This document shows positions 12,695 through 54,570 of a stretch of 64,000 nucleotides of DNA, one piece after another. Location: NCBI GenBank assembly GCA_963697875.1, contig OY969099.1, positions 2,793,234-2,857,233 of the forward strand, read 5' to 3'. Origin of the DNA: an uncultured Actinomycetes bacterium (GTDB lineage: Bacteria > Actinomycetota > UBA4738 > HRBIN12). Positions within the stretch are counted from its first letter, which is position 1. Each line of letters begins with the position of its first letter. The notes beneath the pieces are model-generated. The model saw only the letters and a list, made by a program, of their open reading frames with translations, was not told the DNA's origin and did not search any database. The translations under genes were made by a program, and so were the position numbers.

Positions 12695-12695
12695 A

Positions 12696-13499: not shown

Positions 13500-13633
13500 G
13501 GGGTAGGTCCGTCCTCCGTTCGCACGTTCGCTTCCACGCAAGTCTCGGCGAGGACCGCGCGAGTGACAACGTGGGGCGCATCCCCCGTTCGGACCCCGGT
13601 GTAGACTCGCCCCACGGTGCGAGGAACTGCGCA

Positions 13634-14641: not shown

Positions 14642-14642
14642 C

Positions 14643-20473: not shown

Positions 20474-20497
20474 CGCCCGAGCGTACACTCGACGTCG

Positions 20498-22044: not shown

Positions 22045-22082
22045 CGACGAGAGCGTAGCGGCAGGGGGTGTGGAGGAGCCGG

Positions 22083-28787: not shown

Positions 28788-31631
28788 ATGACCTGTGGGG
28801 TCTGTGGACAGCTCTTGCCGGACGGGGCACGTTTCTGCCCGAACTGCGGGACCCCTGTGCCCACCTCGGTGGGCACCGAAGAGCGGAAGCTCGTCACGGT
28901 GATGTTCGCCGATCTCGTCGACTCGACAGGTCTGACGCAACGCCTCGATGCCGAGCGGACCCGGGAGGTTCTCGGCCGCTTCTACGACGAGGCCACCGAG
29001 GAGATCCTCGCGCTGCGCGGTCGGCCCGAGAAGTTCATCGGCGATGCGGTGATGGCGGTCTTCGGTCTGCCACAGGTGCACGAGGACGACGCGGTTCGAG
29101 CGGTGCGGGCCGGGCTCGCCGTGCGCGACCGAGTGCGCCGGATGTGCTCCGTCCTGGGGCTCCCGGACGAGCTCGAGGTGCGAGTGGGGATCGAGACCGG
29201 CGAGGCCGCGACCGGTGAGGGGCCTACCGGTCAGCTCCTGGTCACGGGTCCCGTGGTGAACGCCGCCGCCCGGCTGCAGGACGCCGCGGCGCCGGGCCAG
29301 GTGCTCGCCGGCGCCACCACGCACCAGCTGACGCAGGCGGCCGTCTCGTTCGAGGAACGACGCACGGTGCGAGCCAAAGGATTCTCCGACGGGCTCGCGG
29401 CCCATCCGATCCTCGAGCTCACCACGCGGTCGGCACGGCGCACCATCCCGGTCGTCGGGCGAGCGGGTGAGCTGTCGACCCTGCGCGACGCCTACGCGCG
29501 TGCGGTCGCCGGGGCGCGGCCGGTTCTCGTCACGCTGCTCGGCGAGCCCGGGATCGGCAAGTCGCGGCTCATCGAGGAGTTCGTCGCCGGCCTGGAGCCC
29601 GACGTGCTCGTCCTGACCGGACACGGCCGCACGTACTCGGACAGCGCCACCTTCGCCCCGGTCGCCGCGATGGTGCGTGAGCTCGCAGGCATCGACGACG
29701 GCGAGGTGTCGGAGGGTTCCGTGCAGACGCTCCGCGTGCTCGCCGCACGATGTTGCGATCCGACCGAGGCCAAGCACGTCGCCGAGCGGCTCGCGCTCAC
29801 GCTCGGGATCGGCGAGCCGCGACGCGACGAGTCGGCCTTCGTCCAGGAGGTGCAGGGCGGCTTCTTGGCGCTGGCGGAAGGGCTGGCGGCCGAGGCGCCG
29901 CTCGTCCTCGTGTTCGACGACGCGCATGCGCTGCGACCGCCGATGCTCGACCTGATCGAACGGCTGGCCGGCAGGGCCGGCACACGCCCGGGCGCAGCCT
30001 TGATCGTCGTCGTGGCACGCCCCCACCTCGTCGAGTCCCGCGCGTCGTGGGGCGCGGCGTCGGCCGATCACACCGTGATCCGCATCGACCCGCTGCCGAC
30101 GCCCGACGCCATCGAGTTGGCGCGCGAGTCGAGCGGCGGTCGCGTCGACGCCCCGACCGCGGCGCAGATCGCCGAGCGCACGGGTGGGAACCCGTTCTTC
30201 ATCGTCGAGATCACGGGCATGCTCCTTCGGGCCGGCGACGGGGCGCAGCCGGGCGACGCGATCCCGCCCACCGTGCAATCGGTGGTGGCCGCGCGCCTCG
30301 ACTCCCTCTCTCCCACGCTTCGCGAGCTCGTGCGGCAAGTGTCCGTGTTCCTCTACAACTTCGACCCGGTCGAGCTCGAGTACATCGGCCTCGGCGCCGG
30401 CGTGGTCCCCGCCCTCGACGAGCTGATGGACGAGGAGGTGCTCGTCCGGGTCGACGGCGCCGAGCCGCGTTGGCGCTTCCGGCACGAGATGCTTCGCGAC
30501 GTCGCGTACGCCAGCCTGCCCAAGCGCGAGCGCGTCCGCCTGCACCTGGCGATCGTCGACGGGCTCCGACGAGCCAGGCACGAGCACGAGCACGTCACGT
30601 ACGCCGCCGAACACCTCGAGCGTGCGGCGATCGCCTCGCTCGACCTCGCGCCCGACGACCGCGCGATCCCCGAACGCGCCGTCGATGCACTGGCCGCGGC
30701 CGGCGACCGGTCGCGCCGGCGCATGGAGAGCCGCTCCGCCGTCGACTTCTACCTGCGAGCGCTCGCACTCGCAGGTTCCGAGGACGCGTGGGGCACCCGC
30801 GAGGCACGTATCCTCGCCGGTATCGGCGAGTCTCGGTACTGGCTGAGCGAGTATGCGGCGGCGATCGACGTCCTCGATCGGGCGCTGCAGGTCGATGCCG
30901 ACGACGCGTGGACGGTCGCGCTCGCGCTCCGGTTCCGGGGGGATGTCGCGCTCAACTACGAGGGCGACCTCAACATGGCCGAGGAGATGTTCGACCGGTC
31001 GCTCGAGGCCGCCGAACGCTTGGGTGACCCGTTCGCGGTCGATCGCACCCTGCTGTTCGCCGGGTGGGTGCCGTGGGCGCGCCAGGACTTCGAGGCGGCC
31101 GACCGGGTGTGGAAGCGCGCGCTCGCGTTGTCCGAGGAGCACGCCGACCCGTGGGCTCGCGCGAGGGCTCTGACCGCCCTGTCGATCAACCGGTCCGATC
31201 AGGGCGGCCACCAGGAGGCCGTCCGGCTGATCGAGGAAGCCGCGTCCGTCGCCCAAGACCTCGGCGACCAGTTCAGCTCCGCGGTCGCCGCCGTGCAGCG
31301 CGGGCGCCTTCATCAGGAGGCCAACGAGGGACGTGAGGCGATCGACCGCTTCGACGGCGCGATACGAACCTTCTCCGAGCTCGGGGCGCGATGGGAGCTC
31401 GCCGACGCCACCGCCGAGCGCGGGATCTCCTATCGCGAGCTGGGCCAGCTGGACCGGGCGGAAGCCGACCTCAAGCGGGCGATCCAGATCTCGGAGGAGC
31501 TCGGCGAGCGTCAGCTCGCCAGGTGGAGCTGGCGCGCGCTCGCGCGCGTCTCCGAGCAGCGGGGCGACGGCGCCGAGGCGCAGGCGCGCTTGCGCCGCGC
31601 CGATGAAGAAGAGGCGCGGAAGCCCCAGTAG
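28788..31631 (+). CDS. multidomain signalling protein: N-terminal zinc ribbon, class III adenylate/guanylate cyclase domain, AAA/STAND ATPase, C-terminal TPR
   Basis: The N-terminus is CGVCGQLLPDGARFCPNCG. The cyclase core is KLVTVMFADLVDSTGLTQRL...FIGDAVMAVFGLPQVHEDDAVRAVRAGL. The Walker A is LLGEPGIGKSRL and the Walker B is LVLVFDDAH. A long TPR-like C-terminal region follows. The architecture resembles mycobacterial Rv0386/Rv1358, but there is no LuxR HTH. Confidence 0.8.
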   Translation: MTCGVCGQLLPDGARFCPNCGTPVPTSVGTEERKLVTVMFADLVDSTGLTQRLDAERTREVLGRFYDEATEEILALRGRPEKFIGDAVMAVFGLPQVHEDDAVRAVRAGLAVRDRVRRMCSVLGLPDELEVRVGIETGEAATGEGPTGQLLVTGPVVNAAARLQDAAAPGQVLAGATTHQLTQAAVSFEERRTVRAKGFSDGLAAHPILELTTRSARRTIPVVGRAGELSTLRDAYARAVAGARPVLVTLLGEPGIGKSRLIEEFVAGLEPDVLVLTGHGRTYSDSATFAPVAAMVRELAGIDDGEVSEGSVQTLRVLAARCCDPTEAKHVAERLALTLGIGEPRRDESAFVQEVQGGFLALAEGLAAEAPLVLVFDDAHALRPPMLDLIERLAGRAGTRPGAALIVVVARPHLVESRASWGAASADHTVIRIDPLPTPDAIELARESSGGRVDAPTAAQIAERTGGNPFFIVEITGMLLRAGDGAQPGDAIPPTVQSVVAARLDSLSPTLRELVRQVSVFLYNFDPVELEYIGLGAGVVPALDELMDEEVLVRVDGAEPRWRFRHEMLRDVAYASLPKRERVRLHLAIVDGLRRARHEHEHVTYAAEHLERAAIASLDLAPDDRAIPERAVDALAAAGDRSRRRMESRSAVDFYLRALALAGSEDAWGTREARILAGIGESRYWLSEYAAAIDVLDRALQVDADDAWTVALALRFRGDVALNYEGDLNMAEEMFDRSLEAAERLGDPFAVDRTLLFAGWVPWARQDFEAADRVWKRALALSEEHADPWARARALTALSINRSDQGGHQEAVRLIEEAASVAQDLGDQFSSAVAAVQRGRLHQEANEGREAIDRFDGAIRTFSELGARWELADATAERGISYRELGQLDRAEADLKRAIQISEELGERQLARWSWRALARVSEQRGDGAEAQARLRRADEEEARKPQ

Positions 31632-34181: not shown

Positions 34182-35612
34182 CTACCAGTGGAAGCCGGGC
34201 GGAGACGGCGAGCATGCCGCCCGCGCCCTCCGCATAAGGCGACGCTTCACACCTGCCAGCGATGGATCGCGCCGGCGATCGGTGAGCTCGTGCGGATCCG
34301 TCCTGTAGTCGTAGAGCTCGGAGCGCCCATTGGCGTAGCGAATGTAGAGGTAGCGAAGCGTCCGCCAGCCGCAGTACGGGGGACGGGCTACGTTCGTCCC
34401 GTTGCCGCCTGGTGGGTTGGCCGCCGCGGCCTCCATGACGAAGCCGTGTCGTCGCCATACGGTCAACAGGTTCTTCCCCTCGACCGGGCTCGTCGGTGCC
34501 CTTGCGGCGGCGGCGATCGTCACCGGCACGTCCACGTTGAGAGCGATCCTGTCGTCCACACGACCCGGCTTCAGGCGACGGCTCCACCGCATCGCGAGCG
34601 GCACGTGCGTCGCCCCCGCGTAGGGAAGGAACTTGCCGATGGCCCGATGCTCGCCCCACATGTCGCCGTTGTCCGACATGAGGATGATCAACGTGTTGCG
34701 CAGCCGGGATCTGGCTCGCTGCACCCTCATGATCGCGTGAACCGCGCGGTCCACGGCCTGCAGCGATCGATACTGTTCGACTCGGCTCACCTCGATCGCC
34801 TGACGTGACACGAGCGGCAACGCGCGGATCCAGGCCGGCTTGTCGCTCACGTTGGCCTCGTTGAAGTCGGGAGGTGAGAACGGGGCGAGGTGCACCGGCA
34901 GGTTGACGTCGCCGGGCGCCGGCGTCGCCGGGCCGTGCGGCGCGAAAGGGGCGAAGTAGAGGAAGAGCGGCCGCGAGGCAGGGCTCGACCGCAGGAACCG
35001 GGTCGCGTAGTCCTTGAGGACGTTCGTCGAGTAGTCCTGCGGCGCGGAACCGTAGGACGTGACGGACCCGTTCGAGTTGAGGATCTGATAGTCGTAGTAG
35101 CTCCCGTTGCCTCCGATGAAGGAGTGCCAGCGCTTCCACCCCCGAGGCGGTAACGAGCCCGTGAACCCGTTCAGGTACTTGCCCACCAGAGCTGTCCGAT
35201 AGCCGGCTCGGGACAGCCACACCGCCACGGTCCTCGCTTGGTTCCCCGCCGCCTTGAACGCCTTCCATCCGTCGGCGTTGGACCAGACCTTCGTGCCGTG
35301 GGCGAACCGGCCGGTCAGCAACGAGGCACGGGACGGACAGCACACCGATGTCGGCACCATGGCCTCGGAGAACCGCTCGCCACGGCGAACGATGCCGTTC
35401 CACACATGCGGCATCCACGGGAGGGTCCCGTAGCGCGCGTCGTCGGTGACGATCAGGATGATGTCGGGCCGGGTCGGACGTCGCACCGCCGCGGTCGCCC
35501 GGTGCACCGTCGCCTCTCGGGAGGCCACCAGCGAGGCCGCGACGAGCGCGACGAGCGCGGCCGCTCGCCGTGCTGCGTCAGAAGGTCGACCAGGGCAGGC
35601 GGGTTTCTGCAC
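34182..35612 (-). CDS. secreted Cys-type sulfatase (arylsulfatase family)
   Basis: A signal peptide is followed by TDDARYGTLPW and the sulfatase signature CCPSRASLLTGR (C-x-P-x-R formylglycine site). GKYLNG and MSDNGDMWGEH are sulfatase motifs. Confidence 0.85.
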   Translation of the reverse strand: MQKPACPGRPSDAARRAAALVALVAASLVASREATVHRATAAVRRPTRPDIILIVTDDARYGTLPWMPHVWNGIVRRGERFSEAMVPTSVCCPSRASLLTGRFAHGTKVWSNADGWKAFKAAGNQARTVAVWLSRAGYRTALVGKYLNGFTGSLPPRGWKRWHSFIGGNGSYYDYQILNSNGSVTSYGSAPQDYSTNVLKDYATRFLRSSPASRPLFLYFAPFAPHGPATPAPGDVNLPVHLAPFSPPDFNEANVSDKPAWIRALPLVSRQAIEVSRVEQYRSLQAVDRAVHAIMRVQRARSRLRNTLIILMSDNGDMWGEHRAIGKFLPYAGATHVPLAMRWSRRLKPGRVDDRIALNVDVPVTIAAAARAPTSPVEGKNLLTVWRRHGFVMEAAAANPPGGNGTNVARPPYCGWRTLRYLYIRYANGRSELYDYRTDPHELTDRRRDPSLAGVKRRLMRRARAACSPSPPGFHW

Positions 35613-35643: not shown

Positions 35644-36747
35644 TCAACAGCCGAGCCCAGGCGCCTCGCATGTCGAGTCGAGGAGCTCCCGTACGGCCCC
35701 GAAGAACAGGTCGGCAGACCGGCTCCAGGTCGGCAGCGTCTGGCCTCGTCGGCGAGCCCCCGCCGCAAGCCGTTCGCGCGCGATCGGATCCGTGGTGATG
35801 GTCCGGAGGGCGGCCGCAAGCCCCTGATGGTCCCCCGGCTCGGGCATCAGGCCTTCCCGTTCGTGCCCTGCGAGGCGCGGCAGGTTCGCAGCTCGCCATC
35901 CGATCACCGGCAGGCCGGCCGCGAGCGCCTCCGCCCACGCCGTCCCGTACGCATCGACGAGCGAGCACAGAGCGAAGACGTCGGCCGATCGGTAGAGGCG
36001 TCCCACCTCACCGATCGGGGCGGGCCCGCACACGACCACGCGCCCGGACAGATCGGGGGACGAGATCCTCCGGCGCACGCGCTCGGCGTACGCTCGATCC
36101 GGATCGGTGGCTCCCACGAGCCAGAGCGTCGCCGCATCCTCGGGCAGCAAGGCGAACGCGTCCAGCAATTCGACGATGCCCTTGCTCCGTGTCCAGTTCG
36201 CGACGCACAGCACGGCGGTCGCGCGACCTCGACGGAGGTCGAGGGGCGGTCCGAACGTGTCCGGTACATCGCTGCCCGGTGGGACGACGCGGATCCGCTG
36301 CTCCGGTACGCCCGATCCACGCAGGTCGTCCACGAGGCTCTCGCTCGCCGCGATGACGCCCCTCGCACGGCGGTAGGCGAGCCCGTCGAGCGCTCCCTGC
36401 GTCCTCGAGCGCACCCATCCGTGATCCACCCCTCCGGGCACTTGATGCACGATCGCGATGACCGTCACGCCGGTCCGAGCGATCCACGGCGCCGCGAGCG
36501 CGGCCGCGATGCTGTCGAGCAAGACGCAGTCCGCGGACACCGAGGCGCCGCGGACCGCGGATGCCGCCGGCCGGATGCCGGCCGGCCAAGGAAGGGTCGG
36601 GATCGACGTGAACCGGATCTCCGCTGCGTGGGCCGTGGCAGCCCGAGCCATCATCCGGTGATAGCGGTAGCCGCCCGTCAGCCGGCCCGGATCGCCGACC
36701 GTCACGAGTGAGAGCCGGAGTCGCTTGCCGGCCTCACAACCGTTCAC
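35644..36747 (-). CDS. glycosyltransferase family 4 (GT-B)
   Basis: GT4 C-terminal domain signatures are present: ...LVGATDPDRAYAERV..., VFALCSLVDAYGTAWAEALAAGLPVIG and EREGLMPEPGD (EX7E-like). The start overlaps the upstream PTPS-like gene. Confidence 0.75.
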   Translation of the reverse strand: MNGCEAGKRLRLSLVTVGDPGRLTGGYRYHRMMARAATAHAAEIRFTSIPTLPWPAGIRPAASAVRGASVSADCVLLDSIAAALAAPWIARTGVTVIAIVHQVPGGVDHGWVRSRTQGALDGLAYRRARGVIAASESLVDDLRGSGVPEQRIRVVPPGSDVPDTFGPPLDLRRGRATAVLCVANWTRSKGIVELLDAFALLPEDAATLWLVGATDPDRAYAERVRRRISSPDLSGRVVVCGPAPIGEVGRLYRSADVFALCSLVDAYGTAWAEALAAGLPVIGWRAANLPRLAGHEREGLMPEPGDHQGLAAALRTITTDPIARERLAAGARRRGQTLPTWSRSADLFFGAVRELLDSTCEAPGLGC

Positions 36748-37102
36748 GGATGCCTCCGAACGCGTCCTCCGACTCCCACACCCGCACCGCTAGGGATTCG
36801 GCGCCGTCCCTCCTGAGGGGCGCGGCCAACTGTCCGTGCATCCACGCGGCAAGGACCTCCACGGTCACGACCTCCGTCCCGCACACGTCGGCGAGGTCGC
36901 GGTCGCTCGCGCGGGCGACCGCGTCGCCAAGACGTTCGGTGACGACGTCGAGATCGCACACCATCCCCCGCTCGTCGAGACTCGCCCGTTCGGCCACGAC
37001 CTCGACGCGGTAGTCGTGCGGATGTCGCTCGTTCTCGGGCGGGGGCTGCGACGGCATGCTGTGGAACGCACGGAACGAGGCCGTCGCCCCCACCTCGAAC
37101 AT
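36734..37102 (-). CDS. 6-pyruvoyl-tetrahydropterin synthase (PTPS)/QueD-family protein
   Basis: The C-terminal 122 aa of track ORF 36734..37381 is MFEVGATASFRAFHSMPSQPPPENERHPHDYRVEVVAERASLDERGMVCDLDVV..., with the PTPS fold and the zinc-His pattern H..H. ATG 37102 overlaps the upstream gene stop (TGATG). Confidence 0.7.
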   Translation of the reverse strand: MFEVGATASFRAFHSMPSQPPPENERHPHDYRVEVVAERASLDERGMVCDLDVVTERLGDAVARASDRDLADVCGTEVVTVEVLAAWMHGQLAAPLRRDGAESLAVRVWESEDAFGGIRERL

Positions 37103-38094
37103 CAGTACCTCAGCTCGACGTGCATGACTCCGGCCTCGCCCCGGTCCAGGGCGGCGTAGCCGTCCGCGGCCCGGCCGAACGGGACCTCGTCCGACGTCAG
37201 GAGCTTCACGGGAAGATCGCCGAGCAGCTCTGCGGCGACCCGGCGACGCCGAGCGATGTCCCACCGCGCGGCGAGGCGTGCGGGGATCGTCGAGACCTGT
37301 GTGCTCCTGATCTGCAGCCGGCGGCGGTGGAACTCCCTCCCGAGCGGCAGCGACACCTCCTTGGTCCCGTACCAGCTGCACACGAGCACCTCGCCCTCGT
37401 GGCCGAGGAGTTCCAGAGCGCGCGCCAGGGCGGGCGGGTGCCCTGAGGCTTCCACCACGAGCGGCACGCCCGTGCCCGACGTCATCCGATCCACGAGCGA
37501 ATCGATCTCGGCGGCATCGACGGCACGGATCCCGAACCGACCCGCCACCTCACGGCGGTCCCGCCGGACGTCGACGCCGACCACATCGGCCCCCGACCGT
37601 TCCAGCAGCGCGACCGACAGGATCCCCACCGGGCCGAGCCCGAACACCACCACGGGCTGGCCCAATCGAGGACCCGCGTCGAGCGCCACCTGAAGGGCCG
37701 TTTCGACCAACGGGAAGAGCGTCGCCGCGCGCGCGTCGATCTTGTCGACCGGCACGACATCGCCGCCCTCGATGCAGAACAGATCCTGGTGCGGATGGAA
37801 GGCGAAGACCGTCGCGCCCTCGTCCAGACCTTCGGTGTGGGAGACCACGACCTCCCCCACGCAGCTGTAGCCGTAGGCGAACGGGTACGCGAACGTGCCG
37901 CCGAGCGAGCCGATCGTGTCGTCGCGGCTCCAGGCCGGGTCGAGCTCGCCTCGGTACGCCAGCAGTTCGGTGCCTCCGCTGATGCCGGACCACCGCGTCC
38001 TGACGAGGATCTCTCCCTCGGTCGGGGCCGCGACCTCGACGTCCGCGTGCTCCACACGGCGTGGAGCCACGAACCGCAAGACGCGCCCCCTCAT
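37102..38094 (-). CDS. medium-chain dehydrogenase/reductase (zinc-ADH-like, BchC/sorbitol-DH-like)
   Basis: The GroES-like domain is ...VRTRWSGISGGTELLAYRG.... The Rossmann domain is VVVFGLGPVGILSVALLERSGADVVGVDV. The canonical catalytic-zinc Cys are not evident. Confidence 0.75.
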   Translation of the reverse strand: MRGRVLRFVAPRRVEHADVEVAAPTEGEILVRTRWSGISGGTELLAYRGELDPAWSRDDTIGSLGGTFAYPFAYGYSCVGEVVVSHTEGLDEGATVFAFHPHQDLFCIEGGDVVPVDKIDARAATLFPLVETALQVALDAGPRLGQPVVVFGLGPVGILSVALLERSGADVVGVDVRRDRREVAGRFGIRAVDAAEIDSLVDRMTSGTGVPLVVEASGHPPALARALELLGHEGEVLVCSWYGTKEVSLPLGREFHRRRLQIRSTQVSTIPARLAARWDIARRRRVAAELLGDLPVKLLTSDEVPFGRAADGYAALDRGEAGVMHVELRY

Positions 38095-38169
38095 GGGTGG
38101 CTCCTACCCCGAGGCACCGTCGTCCAATCGACGGTTGAAGGGGGTGCCGGGAGGGAAAGCCGCGGATAC

Positions 38170-39510
38170 ATGCCATCCACGACGGTCGCTCCCACCGAGG
38201 TCGCGCGTCTCAGCTTGCCTACCCCGTTCGGAGAATGGCAGATGCGTGCGTTCGACTGGCGGGGCACCGTGCACCTCTGCCTCTCGCGGGGCGAGGTCGG
38301 CGATGGCGAGAACGTCCTCGCGCGCATGCACTCTGAATGTCTGACGGGCGACGTGCTCGGCTCCCTCCGGTGCGACTGCGGGGTTCAACTCCGGCAAGCG
38401 ATGCGGGTGATCGCGGCGGAGGGCCGTGGCGTGCTCGTGTATTCGACCGGCCACGAAGGCCGAGGCATCGGTCTGGCCAACAAGCTGCGTGCGTACATGC
38501 TTCAGGACGACGGACTCGACACCGTGCAGGCGAACCAACACCTCGGATTCCCGGTCGATCGGCGGACGTTCGCCGACGCTGCAGCCTGCCTCCAGACGCT
38601 CGGGGTTCGGTCGGTTCGCCTGTTGTCGAACAACCCGGCGAAGGCGCGAGGCTTGGAAGATGGCGGCATCCGCGTCCTCCGCGTCATGGGCCTGGCGACG
38701 GCGGCCCACACGCGCAACCTGCGATACCTGACGACGAAGCAAGACCTGATGGGCCACGTGGTTCCGATGGGGCTTCCGCTCGACGATCACCTCGGCCCGC
38801 CGGCCGACGTCGGAGCGCTCCTGGGAGCGGTGCGTCCTTCCGGAACGAAGCCCTACGTGGTCCTCAAGTACGCACAGACGCTCGACGGAAGGATCGCCAC
38901 CTCCACCGGGGACTCTCGATGGATCAGTGGCGACGAGGAGCGGCGCATCTCGCATGCGCTCCGTGCGTCGTGCGACGCGGTCCTGGTCGGGGTCGGAACG
39001 GTATTGAGCGACGATCCGCAGCTGACGGTCCGGATGATCCCGGGGGCCTCGCCGATCCGTGTCGTGCTCGATTCGACCCTTCGCGTCCCCGACGGCTCGC
39101 GGCTCCTTGCTGACGACATGGCCACCACGATCGTCATCACCACCGACGCGTCACCGGCCGAGCGTCGTGACGAGCTTCGGCGGAACCGAGTCTCCGTGCT
39201 CGTCGTGCCCGCCGGCCCGTTCGGCGTCGACCCCTCCGCCGCCCTCGAAGCGCTCCACCAAGCTGGGATCCGGTCGTTGCTGGTGGAAGGTGGTGCGCGT
39301 GTGATCACGTCGTTCCTGTCGCTGGGTCTCGCGGACCGGCTGATCGTCGGGATCGCCCCTCGGGTCCTCGGCAACGGAACGGACGCCGTCATGGATCTCG
39401 GGGTCACGGAGGTCTCGAACTCGCTCCGGCTCGAGCGCCGGGCTGTTCACCTGGCGGGCGACGACGTCCTGATCGCCGGCGACGTCGTGCTCTCTAGCCG
39501 GACGGCTTAG
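38170..39510 (+). CDS. GTP cyclohydrolase II (RibA) fused to a RibD C-terminal-type reductase domain; no deaminase domain
   Basis: RMHSECLTGDVLGSLRCDCGVQL is the GCHII zinc motif. VYSTGHEGRGIGLANKLRAY is a GCHII hallmark. The C-terminal half (KPYVVLKYAQTLDGRIATSTGDSRWISGDEERRISHALRASCDAVLVGVGTVLSDDPQL...LLVEGGARV) is a RibD_C/DHFR-like reductase. ATG 38170 is in frame within track ORF 37789..39510. Confidence 0.8.
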   Translation: MPSTTVAPTEVARLSLPTPFGEWQMRAFDWRGTVHLCLSRGEVGDGENVLARMHSECLTGDVLGSLRCDCGVQLRQAMRVIAAEGRGVLVYSTGHEGRGIGLANKLRAYMLQDDGLDTVQANQHLGFPVDRRTFADAAACLQTLGVRSVRLLSNNPAKARGLEDGGIRVLRVMGLATAAHTRNLRYLTTKQDLMGHVVPMGLPLDDHLGPPADVGALLGAVRPSGTKPYVVLKYAQTLDGRIATSTGDSRWISGDEERRISHALRASCDAVLVGVGTVLSDDPQLTVRMIPGASPIRVVLDSTLRVPDGSRLLADDMATTIVITTDASPAERRDELRRNRVSVLVVPAGPFGVDPSAALEALHQAGIRSLLVEGGARVITSFLSLGLADRLIVGIAPRVLGNGTDAVMDLGVTEVSNSLRLERRAVHLAGDDVLIAGDVVLSSRTA

Positions 39511-39959
39511 CCGGGCTTCTCCTCTTGTCCCTTGGAGAATCTGCCGTGGAGCTTGCCTTCCGGGTGGTGCTCGATCTCCTCTTGGCCCTCCGCGAACTCA
39601 CCCTCGTGTACTTCCTCGTGCCCGGGCAGATCCTCGTGCTGTCCCCGAGCGAAGTCGGGCTGCACCAGCCGTTCGGGATCGTCCGGCAGGTCCTCCTGCC
39701 CGCGAGCGAAGTCCGGGCGGGCGGTCGACTGCGGCTCGTCGCCGGGGACCGGCGGGACCACGGGCTCGACGTCGTTCGGATCGACCTCCACGTCCATCGC
39801 TACAACGATCTCTTCCTCCACAACCATCTCTTCGTCGACAGGGGACTCGTCGGTTGGCTCGCGCGGGTCCATCGTCGTGCCTCCTCCCGGGGCGGCCTCG
39901 TTGCCGACCTCTAAGGTGAAGCTTCCCGGGGCGGAGCCGCGGCAAACGACGACCGCCAT
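39507..39959 (-). CDS. acidic, His-rich repeat protein (hypothetical)
   Basis: About 150 aa with pI well below 5. It carries an imperfect tandem motif: PDFARGQEDLPDDPERLVQ / PDFARGQHEDLPGHEEVHEG / EFAEGQEEIEHHPEGKLHGRFSKGQEEKPG. The corresponding approximate DNA repeats are visible. The true start may be Met 29 (about 39875). Confidence 0.5.
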   Translation of the reverse strand: MAVVVCRGSAPGSFTLEVGNEAAPGGGTTMDPREPTDESPVDEEMVVEEEIVVAMDVEVDPNDVEPVVPPVPGDEPQSTARPDFARGQEDLPDDPERLVQPDFARGQHEDLPGHEEVHEGEFAEGQEEIEHHPEGKLHGRFSKGQEEKPG

Positions 39960-44141: not shown

Positions 44142-45086
44142 TCATTCGCCGCGAAACCAGGTGACCGTGCGGCGGATCCCCTCGCGGATCGGGACGCGGG
44201 GCTCGTAGCCGAGGAGCTCCCCGGCGAGCGAGATGTCGGCCTCCGAGCGCAGGATGTCGCCCTCGCGGGGCGGCGTGAACCTCGGATCCGGGGAGGCCCC
44301 GCACTCGCCCGCGATCAGCTCGAGCAGCGCCTTCACCGAGGTCGGTGTGGCGCCCCCGCCGACGTTGAAGGCCCGTCCGAACGCTTGCTCGTCCGCGCGG
44401 ATCGCGAGCAGGTTCGCGTCGACGACGTCGTCGACGTACGTGAAGTCGCGCGACTGCGACCCGTCGCCGTGGATCACCGGCCGTTCGCTCGTCAGACAGG
44501 CCACGATGAACCGCGGGACCACGGCGGCATACTCGCTCGCCGGGTCCTGCCCCGGCCCGTAGACGTTGAAGTAGCGCAGCGAGATCGTCGGGACGCGGTA
44601 GGCGGTCCACGCGGTCATCGCGTACAGCTCGGCCGACGCCTTGGCCGCCGCGTACGGCGAGCGCGGCAACACCGGCATCGTCTCCCGCAGCGGGAACTCG
44701 TCCTGATCGCCGTAGACCGAGGAGGACGACGCCTCTACCACGACGGCGCCCGCGTCGCGCGCCGCGAGCATCACGTTGAGGCTTCCGCGCAGGTTCACGT
44801 CGGTGACGAGGCCCGGTTCGCGGATCGAGAAGGGGACCGAGCGTATCGCAGCCTGGTGCAGGATCGCGTCGCAGCCGCGCGCGGCGTCGGCGACCGCCGC
44901 CTCGTCGCGCACGTCCGCTTCGACGAACCGGACCTCCGGCACGTCCCGGAGCGCCTCGAGTGATCCGGCGGACAGGTCGTCGAGGCCCACCACCTGCACG
45001 CCGTCGGCGACCAGACGGCGGCACAGGTGGGCGCCGACGAACCCGGCCGCCCCCGTCACCAGCATCCGTCGCACGTCTCGATCCAT
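44142..45086 (-). CDS. NAD-dependent sugar epimerase/dehydratase (UDP-glucose 4-epimerase family)
   Basis: MLVTGAAGFVGAHLCRRL is a Rossmann GxxGxxG. SSSSVYGD is present. YAAAKAS is the catalytic YxxxK. The start is Met 91 of track ORF 44142..45356. Confidence 0.85.
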   Translation of the reverse strand: MDRDVRRMLVTGAAGFVGAHLCRRLVADGVQVVGLDDLSAGSLEALRDVPEVRFVEADVRDEAAVADAARGCDAILHQAAIRSVPFSIREPGLVTDVNLRGSLNVMLAARDAGAVVVEASSSSVYGDQDEFPLRETMPVLPRSPYAAAKASAELYAMTAWTAYRVPTISLRYFNVYGPGQDPASEYAAVVPRFIVACLTSERPVIHGDGSQSRDFTYVDDVVDANLLAIRADEQAFGRAFNVGGGATPTSVKALLELIAGECGASPDPRFTPPREGDILRSEADISLAGELLGYEPRVPIREGIRRTVTWFRGE

Positions 45087-45217
45087 CAGCCGTTGCACCG
45101 TAGCCGCCGCGAACCGGAAGCGTAGAGAGAACACCGCATGCGGCGTATGCCCTCCGACGCCCCCCTCCGTACGATCGGAGGCACCAGGATCCGCATCCGG
45201 GACCAGGAGGTCTTCGC

Positions 45218-45745
45218 GTGCCGACCGAGACCGAGACCGAGACCGAGCATCGAGGCATCGATCGTCGTCAACTCCTGAAGCGGGCTGCCGCCGCGGGCGT
45301 CGTCGTATGGACCGTGCCTGCCGTCCAGACGCTGAACATGCCGGCGGCGCTCGCACAGGTCGGCTCGCCGGGCGAGACCTGTTACACGATCAAGATCCTC
45401 TCGAACTCCAGCTGCAGCTCCCCGAACGCGAACGAGAACGTGGCGTCCACGCTGAAGTGCCTCTACGCCTTCGACCCGGACCTGATCCTCCGCAACACGG
45501 GGATCGGGTGCCAGTTCGCGAAGCTCGTGTCGACCGACGTCGACGAGCTCGGGACCTGGCAGGTCAACCTCGAGCCCGGCTGTCGTCTCATTGCCGGGTT
45601 CGCGCGCTCGGGCACCGGTCAGGGTACGTGCATCCAGGCGTCCGATGCCGGCGGCGACCCGGTCGGAGAGGGCGCGACCGGTTCGATCTTCTTCCGCGGG
45701 CAGCCCGTGAACCATGTCGAGATAACGTTCTGCTGCAAGCCGTGA
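45218..45745 (+). CDS. Tat-signal secreted Cys-containing protein (paralog A)
   Basis: GGAGG lies 7 nt before GTG 45218. The N-terminus is MPTETETETEHRGIDRRQLLKRAAAAGVVVWTVPAVQTLNMPAALAQ, with a twin-arginine RRQLLK, an h-region and AxA. The mature region begins VGSPGETCY... and has about seven Cys. It is homologous to the 46950..47435 product. Confidence 0.6.
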   Translation: MPTETETETEHRGIDRRQLLKRAAAAGVVVWTVPAVQTLNMPAALAQVGSPGETCYTIKILSNSSCSSPNANENVASTLKCLYAFDPDLILRNTGIGCQFAKLVSTDVDELGTWQVNLEPGCRLIAGFARSGTGQGTCIQASDAGGDPVGEGATGSIFFRGQPVNHVEITFCCKP

Positions 45746-45752
45746 GCGCAGG

Positions 45753-46004
45753 TCACCACACGAGCCCTCGCTCGACGTCGTCCAGCATCACGATCGCGGC
45801 CCGGTAGCGCCTCAGCAGGTCGTCGCGGTCCTGGTCGCCGATCGCCCTGAGCTCGTCCTCGGAGCATTCGGACACGATGTCTGCGGCGACGACGAGCTCG
45901 TCCCGGACCCGCCCTGCGATCGCGCGCGCCTGCACCGCAGCGGTCACGGCGCGCGCCACGGTCCTAGGCCCGCGTTCGGTTGCGTTGCCGATCGCAGCGT
46001 TCAC
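45753..46004 (-). CDS. small protein (83 aa), translationally coupled downstream of the HprK-like kinase (possible PqqD/RRE-like partner; unverified)
   Basis: ATG 46004 overlaps the kinase stop (ATGA). GC3 is high. No motif is recognised. Confidence 0.4.
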   Translation of the reverse strand: MNAAIGNATERGPRTVARAVTAAVQARAIAGRVRDELVVAADIVSECSEDELRAIGDQDRDDLLRRYRAAIVMLDDVERGLVW

Positions 46005-46873
46005 GTCGATCCGCCTCCCATCAGGTCCTCGATCAGCCGGACGGCGGCATCGAGGTTACCCACCGTCAGCCGATAGCACGCCGCGCCGCGCAGCACGCCC
46101 GCGAGGCGCTCCACGCCGCGGCCGCCGACGACCTCCAGGTTGAACGTTTGCTCCAGCAGGAGCGACAGCATCTCCGCCCGCGACACCGCGCGGAGCTCCG
46201 TGGGGGACCCCTCCTCGAACCGCGGCGCGATGATGTACCGAAGCTCGCACGGCTCGCCCAGGCACCCTGGGCGAAGCGCGCCCGGTGGGATCAGGAAGTC
46301 GAGGTTCCGCACGCGCTCGGCCCACCCGGGCAAGGACGCCCGGAGATCGGGGAACAATGCCATCGAGTCGGGCGCGAGGAGCAGCGGCCGGGTGAACGGA
46401 TACACGAGACCGTCTTGGAGCCCGATCAGCGCGGACTCGTCCGACAGGAATTCGAACCCCGTGCGGACGAGTCCTATCGTGGTCGTCGTCTTGCCGTGAT
46501 CCGGCGGCGCCGGCAGCGCAACCCCCACGCCACCCTTGCTCACGACGCCGGCGTGCACCGCGACGTGAGTAGCCACGCGCATCAATGAGGCGCGAGCGAC
46601 GTCCGCGATGACCCAGGTGAGCATCGTGCCGGGCGGGTTGCCTCGTTGCACCGACCTCCCGTTCATGAGGAGTTCGGGCTGGCCGTTCTGACCGGTGCCC
46701 AGCACTTCGTAGGTGGTGCGATGGGCAGGCGTCACGCGGGGATCGACCCAATCCGCGAACAGCGACGCCGCGGCCTCCGCTACATCGCGCGAGTCGGTGG
46801 TGACGACGAAACGGAATCCAGCCACGTGGAACGACATCGTCGACGCGACGGAACCTGGCGCCGACACGCTCAC
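46001..46873 (-). CDS. HprK-related serine kinase (HPr kinase/phosphorylase C-terminal-domain-like P-loop protein)
   Basis: THVAVHAGVVSKGGVGVALPAPPDHGKTTTTIGLVRTGFEFLSDE is an HprK-type P-loop (GxxGxGKS/T-like PDHGKTTTT) with downstream conserved blocks. The N-terminal HPr-binding domain is absent. Confidence 0.65.
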   Translation of the reverse strand: MSVSAPGSVASTMSFHVAGFRFVVTTDSRDVAEAAASLFADWVDPRVTPAHRTTYEVLGTGQNGQPELLMNGRSVQRGNPPGTMLTWVIADVARASLMRVATHVAVHAGVVSKGGVGVALPAPPDHGKTTTTIGLVRTGFEFLSDESALIGLQDGLVYPFTRPLLLAPDSMALFPDLRASLPGWAERVRNLDFLIPPGALRPGCLGEPCELRYIIAPRFEEGSPTELRAVSRAEMLSLLLEQTFNLEVVGGRGVERLAGVLRGAACYRLTVGNLDAAVRLIEDLMGGGST

Positions 46874-46949
46874 GACGAGCCTCCTCCGGCGCGCCGATGC
46901 CTGGTCCGGTCCGGACCGGGCATCGCGGAGAACGGCCGCGCGACCGCCC

Positions 46950-47435
46950 CTACGGGCAGTTCGCGCGCGGCGGCGAGGTGTTTACCGGCCGACCGGGCCT
47001 TCCGATCGTCACCTGGCAGTTCTCGGTACCCGAGCAGTAGAGGAAGTTCGTGAAGGGCCCCCGCTGGTAGGCGGGGAGCGCCGGATTGTGGCCTGCCCCG
47101 TTGGAGGAGTTGTACCCGCTCTGCCACTTGCACCAGTTCTCGCAGTCGTCCGCCGTGTTCTGACCGGGGTCGACGAAGGCGTCGGGTTGGCCGTAGTTCT
47201 TGACGATGTTCCCGCTGCCATCCGGCGTGTAGCAGTAGCAGGCGGAGCACTCGCCCGGGCTCGGGCCGTAGGCCGCGGCCGCTTTCATCCCGACGGTCTG
47301 GATCGTCGGGGCCGCCCAGAGCAGAGCTCCGCCCACGATCGCGGAGCGCCGCAGCAGGTCGCGTCGCGACATCCCGATCTCGGACTCCACGTCGATCGAA
47401 CGCTTCTTGGGCTCGAGCTCGTCGTCCACGGTCAC
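46950..47435 (-). CDS. Tat-signal secreted Cys-rich protein (paralog B)
   Basis: ...MSRRDLLRRSAIVGGALLWAAPTIQTVGMKAAAAYGPSPGECSACYCY... is a twin-arginine motif with signal region and an N-terminus homologous to paralog A. The mature part has about nine Cys. The start is GTG 47435 or ATG 47372. Confidence 0.6.
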   Translation of the reverse strand: MTVDDELEPKKRSIDVESEIGMSRRDLLRRSAIVGGALLWAAPTIQTVGMKAAAAYGPSPGECSACYCYTPDGSGNIVKNYGQPDAFVDPGQNTADDCENWCKWQSGYNSSNGAGHNPALPAYQRGPFTNFLYCSGTENCQVTIGRPGRPVNTSPPRANCP

Positions 47436-47549
47436 TCCACCTCGATCCGGGTCGATGGGGACACGCTAGCGACGGCCGGACGGCCGCAGATGCGCCGTCG
47501 ACCGTATCTTTCGCCCACACGGCGTACGTAGGCGGTCTGCGTACCCGGG

Positions 47550-48716
47550 TCACGGCCGCGCCGCCTCGATCGCCCGCCCCACACGGTCGACGTCTTCGAC
47601 CGCCATGCCGTTCCACAACGGCAACGTGAGGGCCTGCCGCGCGGCCCGTTCGGTCTCGGGCAGGTCCGCGACGTGACCGTTCAGGTGCGCGTACGCCTTC
47701 ATCCGGTGCACCGGCGGGTGGTAGTAGCGGCGCGTCTCGATCCCCCAGGCGGCGAGCGCCGCCGCCAGCGCGTCGGCGTCGATCCCGAAGCGGTCCGGGT
47801 CGATCAAGACGGTGAGGTCCTTATAGGTGCTTCGATCGCCGTCGGGCACGACCGGGAACCGGATCCCGCCGATCCCGCCGAGGCGCTCGCGGTACCGGCC
47901 GGCGATCGCGTTGCGCTCGTCCAGCCGCTCGTCCAGGTCCTCGAACGAGGCGAGGGCCACCGCGGCGTGGAGCTCGGAGAGACGCGCGTTCAGCCCCACG
48001 AACAGGCAGTCGTAGTCGCCGGGGTTGCCGTAGTCCCGGGCGATGCGCAGGCGCTCGGCGAGCAGGTCGTCGTCGGTCGAGACCAACCCGCCCTCGGCGG
48101 CCACGAGCACCTTCGTCGGGGACATGCTGAAGACCTCGGCGTCGCCGAGCCCGCCGACCCGGACGCCGCCGGACGAGGACCCGAACGCGTGGGCGGCGTC
48201 GAAGAACAGGCGCAGGCCGTTCACGCCGGCGAGCGCCCGGAGCGCGTCGACGTCGCACGGCGTGCCGTAGACGTGCGTCGCGAGGATCGCCGCGGTGCGG
48301 GCACCGAGGACGCGGTCGACGGCCTCCGGGCTGAGGGTGAGCGTGTCGGGGTCGACGTCGGCGAACACGGGCCGCAGGCCGTTCCACGCCACCGCGTGGG
48401 CCGTGGCCGCGAACGTGAACGACGGCACGATCACGTCGCCGTCGAGCTCGGCGCACCGGAGCACGAGCATCAACCCGGCCGTGCAGGACGAGACCGCGAC
48501 CACGTGCCGGACCCCCAGGTACGCCGCGGCGGCCGCCTCGAGCCGCCGGACCGTGGGGCCGTTCGTCAGGACCCCGCTCCGCAGGATCGTCTCGACCTCG
48601 GCCGCGACGCGCGCGGGGTCGGCGAGGCGGGGGCGCGCGAGCGGCAGCGGTGTGGCCGGACCGAGCGCCGGGATGGACCGACGCGCCTGGGTGGCGTCGA
48701 GCGGGTGGGTACTCAT
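47550..48716 (-). CDS. DegT/DnrJ/EryC1/StrS-family sugar aminotransferase (PLP-dependent)
   Basis: The start is MSTHPLD (ATG 48716). ...GVLTNGPTVRRLEAAAAAYLGVRHVVAVSSCTAGL...VIVPSFTFAATAHAV...FSMSPTKVL carries the PLP-Lys motif. Confidence 0.85.
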   Translation of the reverse strand: MSTHPLDATQARRSIPALGPATPLPLARPRLADPARVAAEVETILRSGVLTNGPTVRRLEAAAAAYLGVRHVVAVSSCTAGLMLVLRCAELDGDVIVPSFTFAATAHAVAWNGLRPVFADVDPDTLTLSPEAVDRVLGARTAAILATHVYGTPCDVDALRALAGVNGLRLFFDAAHAFGSSSGGVRVGGLGDAEVFSMSPTKVLVAAEGGLVSTDDDLLAERLRIARDYGNPGDYDCLFVGLNARLSELHAAVALASFEDLDERLDERNAIAGRYRERLGGIGGIRFPVVPDGDRSTYKDLTVLIDPDRFGIDADALAAALAAWGIETRRYYHPPVHRMKAYAHLNGHVADLPETERAARQALTLPLWNGMAVEDVDRVGRAIEAARP

Positions 48717-54569: not shown

Positions 54570-54570
54570 C

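Follow-up and report, generated by a model that had tools for sequence, protein, structure and literature searches.

A compact four-gene cassette with a GTP cyclohydrolase II-RibD reductase fusion and a PTPS-IV-like protein: a candidate route from GTP to a glycosylated pyrimidine or pterin-type molecule

Organization of the locus

Four genes that a first-pass annotation had reported at positions 35644–39510 are present there in the window, the whole 64-kb stretch of DNA that was analyzed (Table 1). A fusion of GTP cyclohydrolase II (GCHII) and the RibD C-terminal reductase domain (RibD_C) is divergent to three overlapping genes that code for an MDR dehydrogenase, a PTPS-like protein, and a GT4 glycosyltransferase. 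The translational couplings described earlier were also found: the MDR stop and the PTPS-like start form a TGATG with one base common to both (1-nt overlap), and the GTG start of the GT4 gene overlaps the PTPS-like stop by 14 nt. Public gene calls agree on these starts, and the PTPS/GT4 overlap in relatives is 8–14 nt. The long open reading frame listed for the fusion (37789–39510) opens upstream of its true start, which we place at the ATG at 38170 because of its fit to the E. coli RibA alignment and to homologues of 440–447 aa. The public call of the fusion (P0001, 422 aa) is 24 codons short.

Table 1. Features of the cassette, with positions in the window.
Feature	Position	Strand	Size and evidence
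GT4 (GT-B, group 1) glycosyltransferase	35644-36747	-	367 aa; Pfam Glycos_transf_1 6e-22, Glyco_trans_1_4, Glyco_transf_4
PTPS-fold (T-fold) protein	36734-37102	-	122 aa; Pfam PTPS 8e-17
Zinc-less BchC/threonine-dehydrogenase-like MDR oxidoreductase	37102-38094	-	330 aa; Pfam ADH_zinc_N 3e-16
Divergent intergenic spacer	38095-38169		75 bp, between fusion and MDR
Bifunctional GCHII and RibD_C fusion	38170-39510	+	446 aa; PF00925 1e-56, PF01872 3e-53
GCHII domain of fusion	38170-38784	+	aa 1-205; alignment to 2bz0, 4i14
RibD_C reductase domain of fusion	38806-39510	+	aa 213-446; alignments to 6p8c, 2azn, 2b3z

Conserved sequence emerged from an alignment of 25 related spacers: a GGGAA block precedes the fusion, and GGTTG(R) and GGGTA blocks precede the MDR gene. 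No sigma-70 consensus, terminator, or riboswitch was detected in the spacer, and a search for an FMN riboswitch found none. A Pfam scan of ~40 open reading frames of the window yielded no further rib, fol, or que families, in line with the reported absence of ribB, ribH, and ribE nearby. No phosphatase gene adjoins the cassette in the window, and all four proteins look soluble.

The fusion protein

Pfam and NCBIfam searches reproduced the domain calls and the missing deaminase domain. The fusion scores 207.4 bits against NCBIfam ribA (cut-off 205.85) and 188.8 bits against ribD_Cterm (cut-off 150.15), and the reported GCHII motif, ECLTGDVLGSLRCDCG, is found in its translation. The GCHII domain retains the Cys triad (ECLTGD..RCDCG), and the NADPH motifs of the reductase domain (GVGT..D and VEGG) are intact. 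The residue corresponding to E. coli Y105 is Tyr in 65/65 cassette-linked GCHII copies examined, which therefore belong to the RibA type rather than to the FAPy-forming type of SCO6655.

The substrate-specificity position of the reductase (BsRibG K151, EcRibD K152) is Lys in the window fusion, and Lys occupies it in 49/50 fusions of this branch. A Lys here is tied to a deaminated substrate, whereas fungi have Thr and archaea Asn (PMC3631187). Judged from this residue, the claim that the fusion makes the 2,5-diamino-ribityl intermediate of the archaeal and fungal order is contradicted. That intermediate may fit the sister FGPA branch better than the window, because the partner reductases of that branch carry small residues at the specificity position.

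The PTPS-like protein is a Glu-type relative of PTPS-IV

QueD or classical PTPS identity was rejected. The protein scores 40.8 bits against QueD (cut-off 89.25) and 32.8 against 6PTHBS (cut-off 125.5), lacks each of the CxxxHGH, CxxxxxHGH, and ExxHGH motifs, and has no Cys. No queC, queE, folE, or folB gene occurs in 166 neighborhoods, and the earlier separation of a dedicated cassette from queuosine and tetrahydrobiopterin genes stands.

Residues H14, H27, H29, E23, E82, and E110 are invariant. Among them are the His triad and the two Glu that alignments place on the pterin-anchoring Glu of QueD/PTPS, and the residue at the Cys position of QueD is Glu. That Glu works as a base in a T-fold is shown by entries for Plasmodium PTPS with the label 'E37 catalytic residue mutant'. 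The best PDB match of the family profile is SCO6650 (2e-20); an AF2 model (pLDDT 91) has SCO6650 (PDB 3d7j) as its top Foldseek match (TM 0.82), with the T-fold common to both. The protein is thus a Glu-type relative of the PTPS-IV subfamily, of which SCO6650 is the archetype.

The window protein shares RibD_C, MDR, and GT4 partners with canonical FGPA-type PTPS-IV but differs from it in several respects. The PTPS-IV signature FGPA(Q) is replaced by PPPE(N), with the invariant Glu at the Cys-equivalent position, and the reductase partnered with it has Lys, not a small residue. All three zinc-ligand His are present, whereas the second motif of SCO6650 is H-G-A; the SCO6650 structure is reportedly that of a protein without zinc. 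The pairing of a PTPS-fold gene with GCHII had been called unusual, but it is not without precedent: a PTPS-IV neighborhood with GCHII (PF00925) is published (PMC5445326), and Chlamydia routes the GCHII product into pterin (PMC4161248).

The MDR dehydrogenase and the glycosyltransferase

The description of the MDR protein as zinc-ADH-like holds for its only Pfam match, ADH_zinc_N, but not for catalysis, as the catalytic zinc ligands Cys and His are replaced by Ser and Tyr. The best NCBIfam match is BchC (4e-19, below the cut-off). SGxSxGTE, YGY, GxGxxG, and an acidic residue ending beta-2 are kept in 52/52 family members, and use of NAD is predicted from this acidic residue. The protein resembles BchC and the threonine and butanediol dehydrogenases, which oxidize secondary alcohols.

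The closest solved relatives of the GT4 protein are sucrose-phosphate synthase (6e-15), MshA (4e-10), and BshA (9e-8), which use phosphorylated or small acceptors. Tetrahydrobiopterin glucosyltransferases match at 1e-4 and 0.08 only, and the relationship to known pteridine glycosyltransferases is remote.

Conservation across genomes

Relatives of the PTPS-like gene are encoded in 351 GTDB species genomes. The cassette, which occurs in hundreds of species of soil bacteria, is concentrated in Actinomycetota and Chloroflexota. We sampled 80 GTDB loci fetched via the PTPS-like gene and three fetched via the fusion. The arrangement recurs in all three of the latter and in most of the 80, and linkage therefore exceeds chance. 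In 74/75 loci the MDR gene immediately precedes the PTPS-like gene, and a GT4 orthologue lies ≤2.5 kb downstream in 36/65. Among loci with full flanks, GCHII occurs within ±10 kb in 34/42 and RibD_C in 21/42. Unbiased clustering of neighbors ranked MDR (67 loci), GT4 (64), and GCHII (57) highest, followed by phosphatases (HisPhos 27, HAD 12). These results confirm that the conserved gene order is real.

Co-occurrence of the four genes elsewhere, raised by the first-pass annotation, takes several forms in which MDR, GCHII, RibD_C, and GT4 recur. The divergent fusion is found in the window clade, Gaiellaceae, and Geodermatophilaceae. Canonical FGPA-type PTPS-IV genes sit in co-directional GCHII-RibD_C-MDR-PTPS-GT4 operons, and one Chloroflexota-type locus encodes a single 604-aa RibD_C and MDR protein followed by PTPS-IV. 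In Streptosporangiales, GCHII stands alone as part of a larger cluster, with no RibD_C within 10 kb. Two loci (L088 and L089) have RibD_C without GCHII, and in some relatives a second GT4 and an FkbM methyltransferase are also present.

Alternative explanations

The fusion could be the housekeeping riboflavin enzyme of the lineage, responsible for steps 1 and 3, and a gene elsewhere would supply the deaminase; the MDR, PTPS-like, and GT4 proteins would then share the GCHII product at most or be unrelated. Its domains do look canonical, passing or approaching the ribA and ribD_Cterm cut-offs, with the catalytic residues of RibA and RibD/RibG, and the bacterial-type Lys suits an order in which deamination precedes reduction (PMC3631187). 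In relatives, a HAD or His-phosphatase gene next to the cassette could supply the ARPP phosphatase, and the source genome, at 3.13 Mb, is small. We nonetheless consider this explanation unlikely. RibD_C is tied to MDR and the T-fold irrespective of GCHII, in the RibD_C and MDR fusion, in L088 and L089, and in the co-directional operons, and GCHII takes varied positions and orientations, such as the stand-alone Streptosporangiales copy. The window fusion joins RibA to RibD_C, unlike the RibB-RibA or deaminase-reductase proteins of riboflavin synthesis, a pathway that does not use an MDR, T-fold, or GT4 protein. No ribB, ribH, ribE, deaminase, or FMN riboswitch was found in the window or among recurrent neighbors.

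Somewhat less probable again, the module could provide deazaflavin (FO/F420) or flavin synthesis with 5-amino-6-ribitylaminouracil or a different precursor, and the T-fold protein would be a non-canonical pyrimidine deaminase. Actinomycetota and Chloroflexota, where the cassette mostly occurs, include F420 producers. A T-fold Glu by the metal site pairs with a reductase Lys (2-oxo type) in 54 loci, and a T-fold Ala with small reductase residues in 23/24; such co-variation is expected of a deaminase-before-reductase switch but may be plain phylogeny. The metal of PTPS/QueD is located where the pocket takes the side chain, well away from the Glu-held 2-amino group, and both T-fold types, Glu and Ala, keep the Glu anchors, which argues against deamination. 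The fbiC, cofG, cofH, cofD, and cofE families are not among recurrent neighbors, and neither F420 nor riboflavin synthesis has a use for the near-universal MDR or the frequent GT4. The one functional hint in print for PTPS-IV is a remark that ties it to F420 synthesis on the basis of unpublished work (PMC5041015); F420 has no sugar.

More doubtful is a product built into an envelope glycolipid or glycoconjugate as its head group, similar to a phosphatidylinositol mannoside, built on a GTP-derived polyol phosphate. In 27 loci, from Streptosporangiaceae, Actinocrinis, Trebonia, and one Gemmatimonadota MAG, MDR-PTPS-phosphatase genes adjoin a gene for an 820-aa CDP-alcohol phosphatidyltransferase, together with an LPG_synthase_TM protein, GCHII, two methyltransferases, and GT4; one of them (L069) also has GT87. 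Such membrane enzymes are missing from the window and its closest relatives, the four window proteins look soluble, and the two gene sets could be adjacent yet separate.

Least credible by far is an ordinary queD or PTPS gene that uses the product of GTP cyclohydrolase I to make queuosine, folate, or biopterin, which the Pfam PTPS match and weak QueD similarity would allow but the scores, the missing motifs, the neighborhoods, and SCO6650, a non-PTPS protein, as closest structure disfavor.

Proposed pathway

With a probability of roughly 0.5, the four genes form one dedicated module that converts GTP to a glycosylated pyrimidine or pterin-type molecule, not to riboflavin, queuosine, or tetrahydrobiopterin. 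A glycosylated pyrimidine or pteridine, as first suggested, is still the best reading of the product. What the data show is the gene content, its coupling and conservation, and the family placement of the proteins; the chemistry we infer for every step. From its intact catalytic residues, GCHII would open GTP to 2,5-diamino-6-ribosylamino-4(3H)-pyrimidinone 5'-phosphate, and RibD_C, with intact motifs, would use NADPH to reduce ribosyl to ribityl. For the MDR, T-fold, and GT4 proteins the proposal draws on chemical reasoning. The NAD-type, zinc-less MDR may re-oxidize a secondary ribityl hydroxyl, most simply at C2', and reduction followed by oxidation would amount to an Amadori isomerization in the style of the polyol pathway. 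The two conserved Glu of the T-fold protein, presumed to bear zinc, could then bind the 2-amino-4-oxopyrimidine edge, and ring closure or side-chain chemistry would give a dihydropterin-like product. By analogy with sucrose-phosphate synthase and MshA, GT4 might place a sugar on the still phosphorylated polyol side chain. A phosphatase, encoded in the cassette of many relatives, would finally take off the phosphate.

Several observations sit uneasily with this scheme. The reductase Lys predicts a deaminated (2-oxo) substrate and the T-fold Glu anchors a 2-amino substrate; at the level of residues these signals conflict, and no neighborhood contains a deaminase. Reduction followed by oxidation is a roundabout path to an Amadori rearrangement. 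The published hint for PTPS-IV points to F420, a molecule with no sugar, and the GT4 protein is remote from known pteridine glycosyltransferases. Streptosporangiales-type clusters lack RibD_C, and no phosphatase lies beside the window cassette.

Three known systems offer parallels. In Chlamydia, RibA and TrpF convert the GCHII product to dihydroneopterin monophosphate (PMC4161248). The window module would likewise divert this product from flavin to pterin by isomerization of the ribosylamine, as proposed here, but where the chlamydial bypass relies on an Amadori isomerase of the TIM-barrel type and leads to folate, the window has a candidate reductase, NAD-dehydrogenase, and T-fold protein, and the product would be glycosylated.

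Cyanobacteria and Chlorobium make pterin glycosides with GCHI, PTPS, sepiapterin reductase, and a pteridine glycosyltransferase, and their pathway likewise combines a PTPS-fold enzyme with an oxidoreductase and a GT-B glycosyltransferase of group 1, encoded together. It differs in its entry enzyme (GCHI rather than GCHII and a ribosyl reductase), its oxidoreductase (SDR rather than MDR), a PTPS catalytic triad missing from the window T-fold, and a glycosyltransferase unlike the window GT4, which resembles sucrose-phosphate synthase, MshA, and BshA more closely than it does the BH4 enzymes. Cyanopterin carries a disaccharide with an O-methyl sugar, which the second GT4 and FkbM methyltransferase of some relatives recall.

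Sucrose-phosphate synthase/phosphatase and MshA/MshA2 resemble the many relatives with GT4 and a HAD or His-phosphatase in one operon. Those synthases have a phosphatase partner, whereas none is adjacent to the window cassette, and a sugar or inositol phosphate acceptor, where the window enzyme would use a GTP-derived ribityl or trihydroxypropyl phosphate. As part of the dedicated-module reading, and at the same even odds, the locus would be a compact actinobacterial form of a 'PTPS-IV' cassette.

Gene content and layout of the cassette

The window has a GC content of ~70%. In the cassette, a gene for a GTP cyclohydrolase II (GCHII) fused to a RibD C-terminal reductase (RibD_C) diverges across a 75-bp spacer from a minus-strand trio encoding a medium-chain oxidoreductase (MDR), a PTPS-like T-fold protein, and a GT4 glycosyltransferase. 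One base is shared between the MDR stop codon and the PTPS start codon (TGATG), and the PTPS stop overlaps the GTG start of the GT4 gene by 14 nt, with comparable overlaps in relatives. The gene content described in the first-pass annotation agrees with Pfam, with the ORF list, and with the raw sequence; its observation was borne out and its interpretation held in part. The public call for the fusion is 422 aa long and begins 24 codons too late, omitting window positions 38170–38241. The likely true ATG lies upstream because the alignment to E. coli RibA covers the omitted stretch, which homologues also conserve.

Coordinates of the cassette genes and of other features in the window
Feature	Position	Strand	Details
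GT4 glycosyltransferase	35644–36747	-	367 aa
PTPS-fold protein	36734–37102	-	122 aa
MDR oxidoreductase	37102–38094	-	330 aa
GCHII-RibD_C fusion	38170–39510	+	446 aa; PF00925 1e-56, PF01872 3e-53
Sulfatase	34182–35612	-	Cys-type (CxPxR), N-terminal signal/anchor; 32 bp 3' of GT4, same strand
Very acidic ORF	39507–39959	-	150 aa; stop overlaps fusion stop codon region
Regulator, zinc-ribbon/adenylate-cyclase/AAA_16/TPR	28788–31631	+	947 aa
RNase P RNA, bacterial class A	22071–22490	-	181 bits
2-oxoacid dehydrogenase, two gene sets	5738–15632 and 20351–21484		E3, E1 alpha, E1 beta, E2; then a second E1 alpha and E1 beta
Large polysaccharide-type cluster	44142–63400		epimerase, DegT aminotransferase, several GT4s, GNAT acetyltransferases, polysaccharide deacetylase

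Conserved blocks were identified in the spacer across 25 relatives: GGGAA upstream of the fusion gene and, upstream of the MDR gene, GGTTG(R) and GGGTA. A scan found no consensus promoter or terminator, and Rfam found no FMN riboswitch in the window, where its sole match is the RNase P RNA. Pfam scans of ~40 window ORFs gave no member of the rib, fol, or que families, in agreement with the earlier statement that ribB, ribH, and ribE are not near the cassette.

Several other features surround these genes. The sulfatase was considered as a phosphatase missing from the cassette and rejected: it is secreted and was found again in one related locus only (L008), so it probably does not belong to the cassette. 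The acidic ORF has no Pfam match and was not seen in related loci. Regulators with the same architecture as the one in the window adjoin the cassette in several relatives (L001, L002, and L011), which may reflect expansion within the lineage or a regulatory connection. A lipoyl synthase gene is located near the 2-oxoacid dehydrogenase genes. The polysaccharide region has an unusually high GC content of 75%–77% and strong AT skew at 48–54 kb, drops to 62% GC at 60–64 kb, and may be of mosaic or foreign origin.

A Glu-type sister of PTPS-IV

The T-fold protein scores 40.8 against the QueD model (cut-off 89.25) and also falls below the 6PTHBS cut-off. The QueD motif CxxxHGH is absent and reads E-N-E-R-H-P-H. 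Features of PTPS-II are likewise missing, as there is no Cys for CxxxxxHGH and the equivalents of QueD D70/H71 vary (S/G/D). The PTPS-III motif ExxHGH is absent, with E23 and E25 located four and two residues before the first His, not three, and HPH in place of HGH. At the position aligned to FGPAQ, the PTPS-IV signature (PMC5445326), the protein has PPPEN; intermediate relatives have GPE and distant ones have FGPA. No queC, queE, or folE occurs among the recurrent neighbor families of 84 + 80 loci or in the window ORFs scanned. A role in canonical QueD or BH4 synthesis was rejected on motifs, scores, and gene context.

Five residues (H14, H27, H29, E82, and E110) show little or no variation. 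They correspond to QueD His16, His31, His33, Glu86, and Glu110, a putative metal triad and putative pterin anchors that would hold the 2-amino-4-oxopyrimidine edge. An invariant E23 occupies the QueD Cys position exactly, and PDB entries for Plasmodium E37 make a catalytic Glu plausible. The best solved relative of the family profile is SCO6650 (3d7j; 2e-20), the archetype of PTPS-IV, followed by QueD (2e-16). In Foldseek, a confident AF2 model of the protein (pLDDT 91) also has 3d7j at rank 1 (TM 0.82). Based on the profile and fold matches to SCO6650, the FGPA of distant relatives, and the GCHII neighborhood, the sequence and model identify this protein as a Glu-type sister of PTPS-IV with its predicted zinc site kept. 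SCO6650 has had a crystal structure since 2008, and we know of no published function for it or for PTPS-IV. The one hint found in the literature describes the family as "involved in F420 synthesis (unpublished)" (PMC5041015). Accessible portions of the literature on the archaeal candidate deaminase PyrD/MJ0699 do not link it to the PTPS family.

A RibA-type cyclohydrolase fused to a reductase

The GCHII domain passes the cut-offs of TIGR00505 (207.4 bits vs 205.85) and PRK00393 (218.9 vs 148). Aligned to E. coli RibA (2bz0), it has the zinc Cys triad (CxxGD..CxC) as ECLTGD..RCDCG, and the Tyr of its RAY motif corresponds to Y105. This residue is Tyr in all 65 cassette-linked copies examined, and in work on S. 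coelicolor GCHII paralogues it reportedly separates RibA-type enzymes from FAPy-forming paralogues. Since the triad and the Y105 equivalent are kept and the cut-off is passed, the domain is predicted to be an ordinary, formate-releasing RibA type.

No N-terminal deaminase domain (CMP/dCMP-type) was found in the fusion, for which Pfam gave only PF00925 and PF01872. Its score against eubact_ribD (144.6) is below the cut-off of 156.35, indicating that it is not a bifunctional RibD. The reductase domain passes TIGR00227 (ribD_Cterm; 188.8 vs 150.15) and scores 152.7 against rib_reduct_arch, below 186.45. Alignment to 2b3z and 2azn places the NADPH motif GxGT..D (GVGTVLSDD) and EGG (VEGG), both with known meaning in RibD_C reductases (PMC3631187). 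The residue equivalent to B. subtilis RibG K151 is Lys in the window reductase and in 49 of 50 fusions of its branch, and S, A, H, C, or T in partner reductases of the canonical PTPS-IV members, hereafter the FGPA branch. Lys at this position favors a deaminated substrate, Thr being found in fungi and Asn in archaea, and a T35K swap moves substrate preference ~3-fold (PMC3631187). By residue and by score, the window reductase does not match the archaeal/fungal, DAROPP-specific type. The first-pass annotation had the fusion producing the archaeal-order 2,5-diamino-ribityl intermediate. The Lys, tied as it is to the deaminated substrate, speaks against that assignment, though the residue is no absolute determinant.

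A zinc-less dehydrogenase and a GT4 glycosyltransferase

Pfam recognizes only the Rossmann half of the MDR (PF00107, ADH_zinc_N, 3e-16), with GxGxxG reading GLGPVG, and does not detect an ADH_N domain. Its description as zinc-ADH-like is right as to the MDR superfamily and wrong as to the zinc-dependent type: the catalytic ligands (Cys, His, and Glu) are absent, with Ser39 at the Cys position and Tyr76/Ser77 at the His-Glu position. All 52 of 52 family members have SGxSxGTE, YGY, and GxGxxG, and in each beta-2 ends in an acidic residue. The best family matches, all below threshold, are BchC, threonine dehydrogenase, and butanediol dehydrogenase. BchC membership was rejected at 68.7 bits against an equivalog cut-off of 291, leaving a resemblance only. 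From its sequence, we read the MDR as a zinc-independent dehydrogenase of a secondary alcohol, with NAD preferred because of the acidic beta-2 residue.

Both the Glyco_transf_4 N-domain and the Glycos_transf_1 C-domain are present in the GT4 (Pfam). Its nearest solved relatives are sucrose-phosphate synthase (SPS; 6e-15), MshA (4e-10), and BshA (9e-8), whereas tetrahydrobiopterin glucosyltransferases (BGluT/PGT) are remote (9v0l, 1e-4 over 70 residues; 5zer, 0.08).

Distribution and conservation of the gene set

GTDB species genomes were scanned with the T-fold family alignment, which identified relatives in 351 of them, and 80 loci were kept for neighborhood counts. These are from uncultured Actinomycetota, Gaiellaceae, Geodermatophilaceae (Blastococcus, Geodermatophilus, and Modestobacter), Actinoallomurus, Actinocrinis, Trebonia, Streptosporangiaceae, and one Gemmatimonadota MAG. 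In 74 of 75 loci the MDR gene immediately precedes the T-fold gene, and a GT4 orthologue is ≤2.5 kb downstream in 36 of 65. Within ±10 kb of the T-fold gene, loci with full flanks contain GCHII (34/42) and RibD_C (21/42). Unbiased clustering of neighboring ORFs ranked MDR, GT4, and GCHII at the top, followed by CDP-alcohol phosphatidyltransferases (27 loci), His-phosphatases (27), methyltransferases, LPG_synthase_TM (19), and HAD proteins (12). Metagenomes contain many relatives of the fusion and of the T-fold protein, the top matches being 70%–85% identical, and all top fusion matches share the GCHII plus RibD_C two-domain build. Each of three loci fetched via the fusion reproduces the four-gene layout of the cassette, and in two a HAD hydrolase gene follows the GT4. 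The four genes had been proposed as a set, and the partners do recur across GTDB and metagenome loci.

Architectures differ among lineages. In the window clade the cassette is minimal, apart from a HAD gene in part of the loci, and some loci have a His-phosphatase between the MDR and T-fold genes or 3' of the GT4. A second, convergent GT4 is found in Gaiellaceae and Geodermatophilaceae, accompanied in Geodermatophilaceae loci (e.g., L067) by an FkbM methyltransferase. A metagenome scan with canonical FGPA-type PTPS-IV recovered these partners as well, in many cases arranged co-directionally as a GCHII-RibD_C-MDR-PTPS-GT4 operon, and FGPA-branch proteins carry a Chloroflexota annotation wherever they are named. 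One FGPA-branch metagenome contig of Chloroflexota type (L165, 6194–8008) has a single 604-aa RibD_C+MDR gene call followed directly by PTPS-IV, and another FGPA-branch locus has RibD_C, MDR, PTPS-IV, and a convergent GT4. The L165 call is the sole fusion gene call kept as evidence; apparent ADH-PTPS and PTPS-GT4 fusions in the representative library were mostly frameshifted assemblies and were not counted.

That the set is kept through rearrangement, fusion, and deep divergence (30%–38% T-fold identity) is strong evidence for one pathway to which the reductase belongs, and not merely as a housekeeping riboflavin enzyme. In this genome the fusion may have a purely housekeeping riboflavin role; these comparative data make that unlikely as the whole story. 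Pairing of GCHII with a PTPS, earlier called unusual, is not new; the PTPS-IV neighborhood was already noticed to include PF00925 (PMC5445326). A literature search found no description of the present gene combination. The cassette is a new Glu/Lys-type, GCHII-reductase-fused variant of a known, functionally orphan PTPS-IV neighborhood, and is neither an artifact nor a set of ordinary riboflavin or queuosine genes.

A larger, Streptosporangiales-type arrangement (type 2) has a stand-alone GCHII and no RibD_C. It occurs in 27 loci (L069, 7064–18821, and 26 similar, e.g., L049, L078, and L064) and contains MDR-PTPS-His-phosphatase, an 820-aa CDP-alcohol phosphatidyltransferase, LPG_synthase_TM, two methyltransferases, a GT4, and an SRPBCC-like protein, with an extra GT87 upstream in L069. 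This content suggests a lipid-linked version of the product. An envelope glycolipid is a rival for the product of type-2 clusters, one that does not obviously apply to the window.

Co-variation of the T-fold protein and the reductase

Among the related loci collected from GTDB and metagenomes (L001–L166), 79 have both genes. Their co-variation is near-perfect. A Glu at the Cys-equivalent position of the T-fold protein occurs with a reductase Lys in 54 loci and with Arg in one, and of the 24 loci with an Ala there, 23 have a small reductase residue (S, A, H, C, or T). Both T-fold types retain the His triad and the two Glu anchors. The pattern may be plain phylogeny, with two states tracking two clades, or may mark a real difference in the pathway intermediate. 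It fits a rival account in which the cassette supplies an F420 or flavin precursor and the T-fold protein acts as a deaminase. The published F420 remark (PMC5041015) fits this rival as well, but the T-fold geometry, the MDR, the GT4, and the gene neighborhoods are all at odds with it.

A possible pterin route and its significance

The boldest reading, to which we give roughly one chance in four, is a GTP-cyclohydrolase-I-independent pterin route involving GCHII, RibD_C, an NAD-dependent MDR, ring closure or remodeling by the PTPS-IV T-fold protein, and glycosylation. Three steps can be reasonably inferred. GCHII would open GTP, RibD_C would reduce the ribosyl group with NADPH, and the GT4 would add a sugar, probably to a phosphorylated acceptor, with a phosphatase trimming the phosphate later. 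This last step follows the analogy to SPS/SPP and MshA and fits the recurrent phosphatases in the operons.

The remaining steps are the favored hypothesis. The MDR would oxidize the ribityl C2' hydroxyl with NAD, and reduction followed by oxidation would amount to a net Amadori isomerization in the style of the polyol pathway. Condensation of the 2'-ketone with the 5-amino group could then yield a 7,8-dihydropterin whose trihydroxypropyl chain is phosphorylated, and the T-fold protein would catalyze closure or further side-chain chemistry. This scheme draws on the RibD_C-MDR fusion, the NADPH/NAD split, the resemblance of the MDR to BchC, the T-fold protein's pterin-type anchors, and the precedent of Chlamydia, where the GCHII product is isomerized to dihydroneopterin monophosphate (PMC4161248). 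It is weakened by the reductase Lys, which points to a 2-oxo substrate, by the clusters without RibD_C, and by the roundabout chemistry.

The window and the comparative data define the full partner set of GCHII, RibD_C, a zinc-less NAD-MDR, the T-fold protein, GT4, and a phosphatase. With two co-varying subtypes and with cultured carriers named, among them Geodermatophilus ruber DSM 45317, Blastococcus jejuensis JCM 15614, and Actinoallomurus sp. CA-150999, an orphan family roughly 15 years old is now directly testable. If the proposed route is true, hundreds of soil species of Actinomycetota and Chloroflexota would make a pterin or diaminopyrimidine glycoside not described before, which might serve as a cofactor, redox buffer, or UV screen, and the long-orphan PTPS-IV/SCO6650 family would be assigned. 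A new GTP-derived glycoside as the product would correct the widespread automatic labels "QueD," "RibA," and "alcohol dehydrogenase" and would add an extra branch of flavin/pterin metabolism in two dominant soil phyla.
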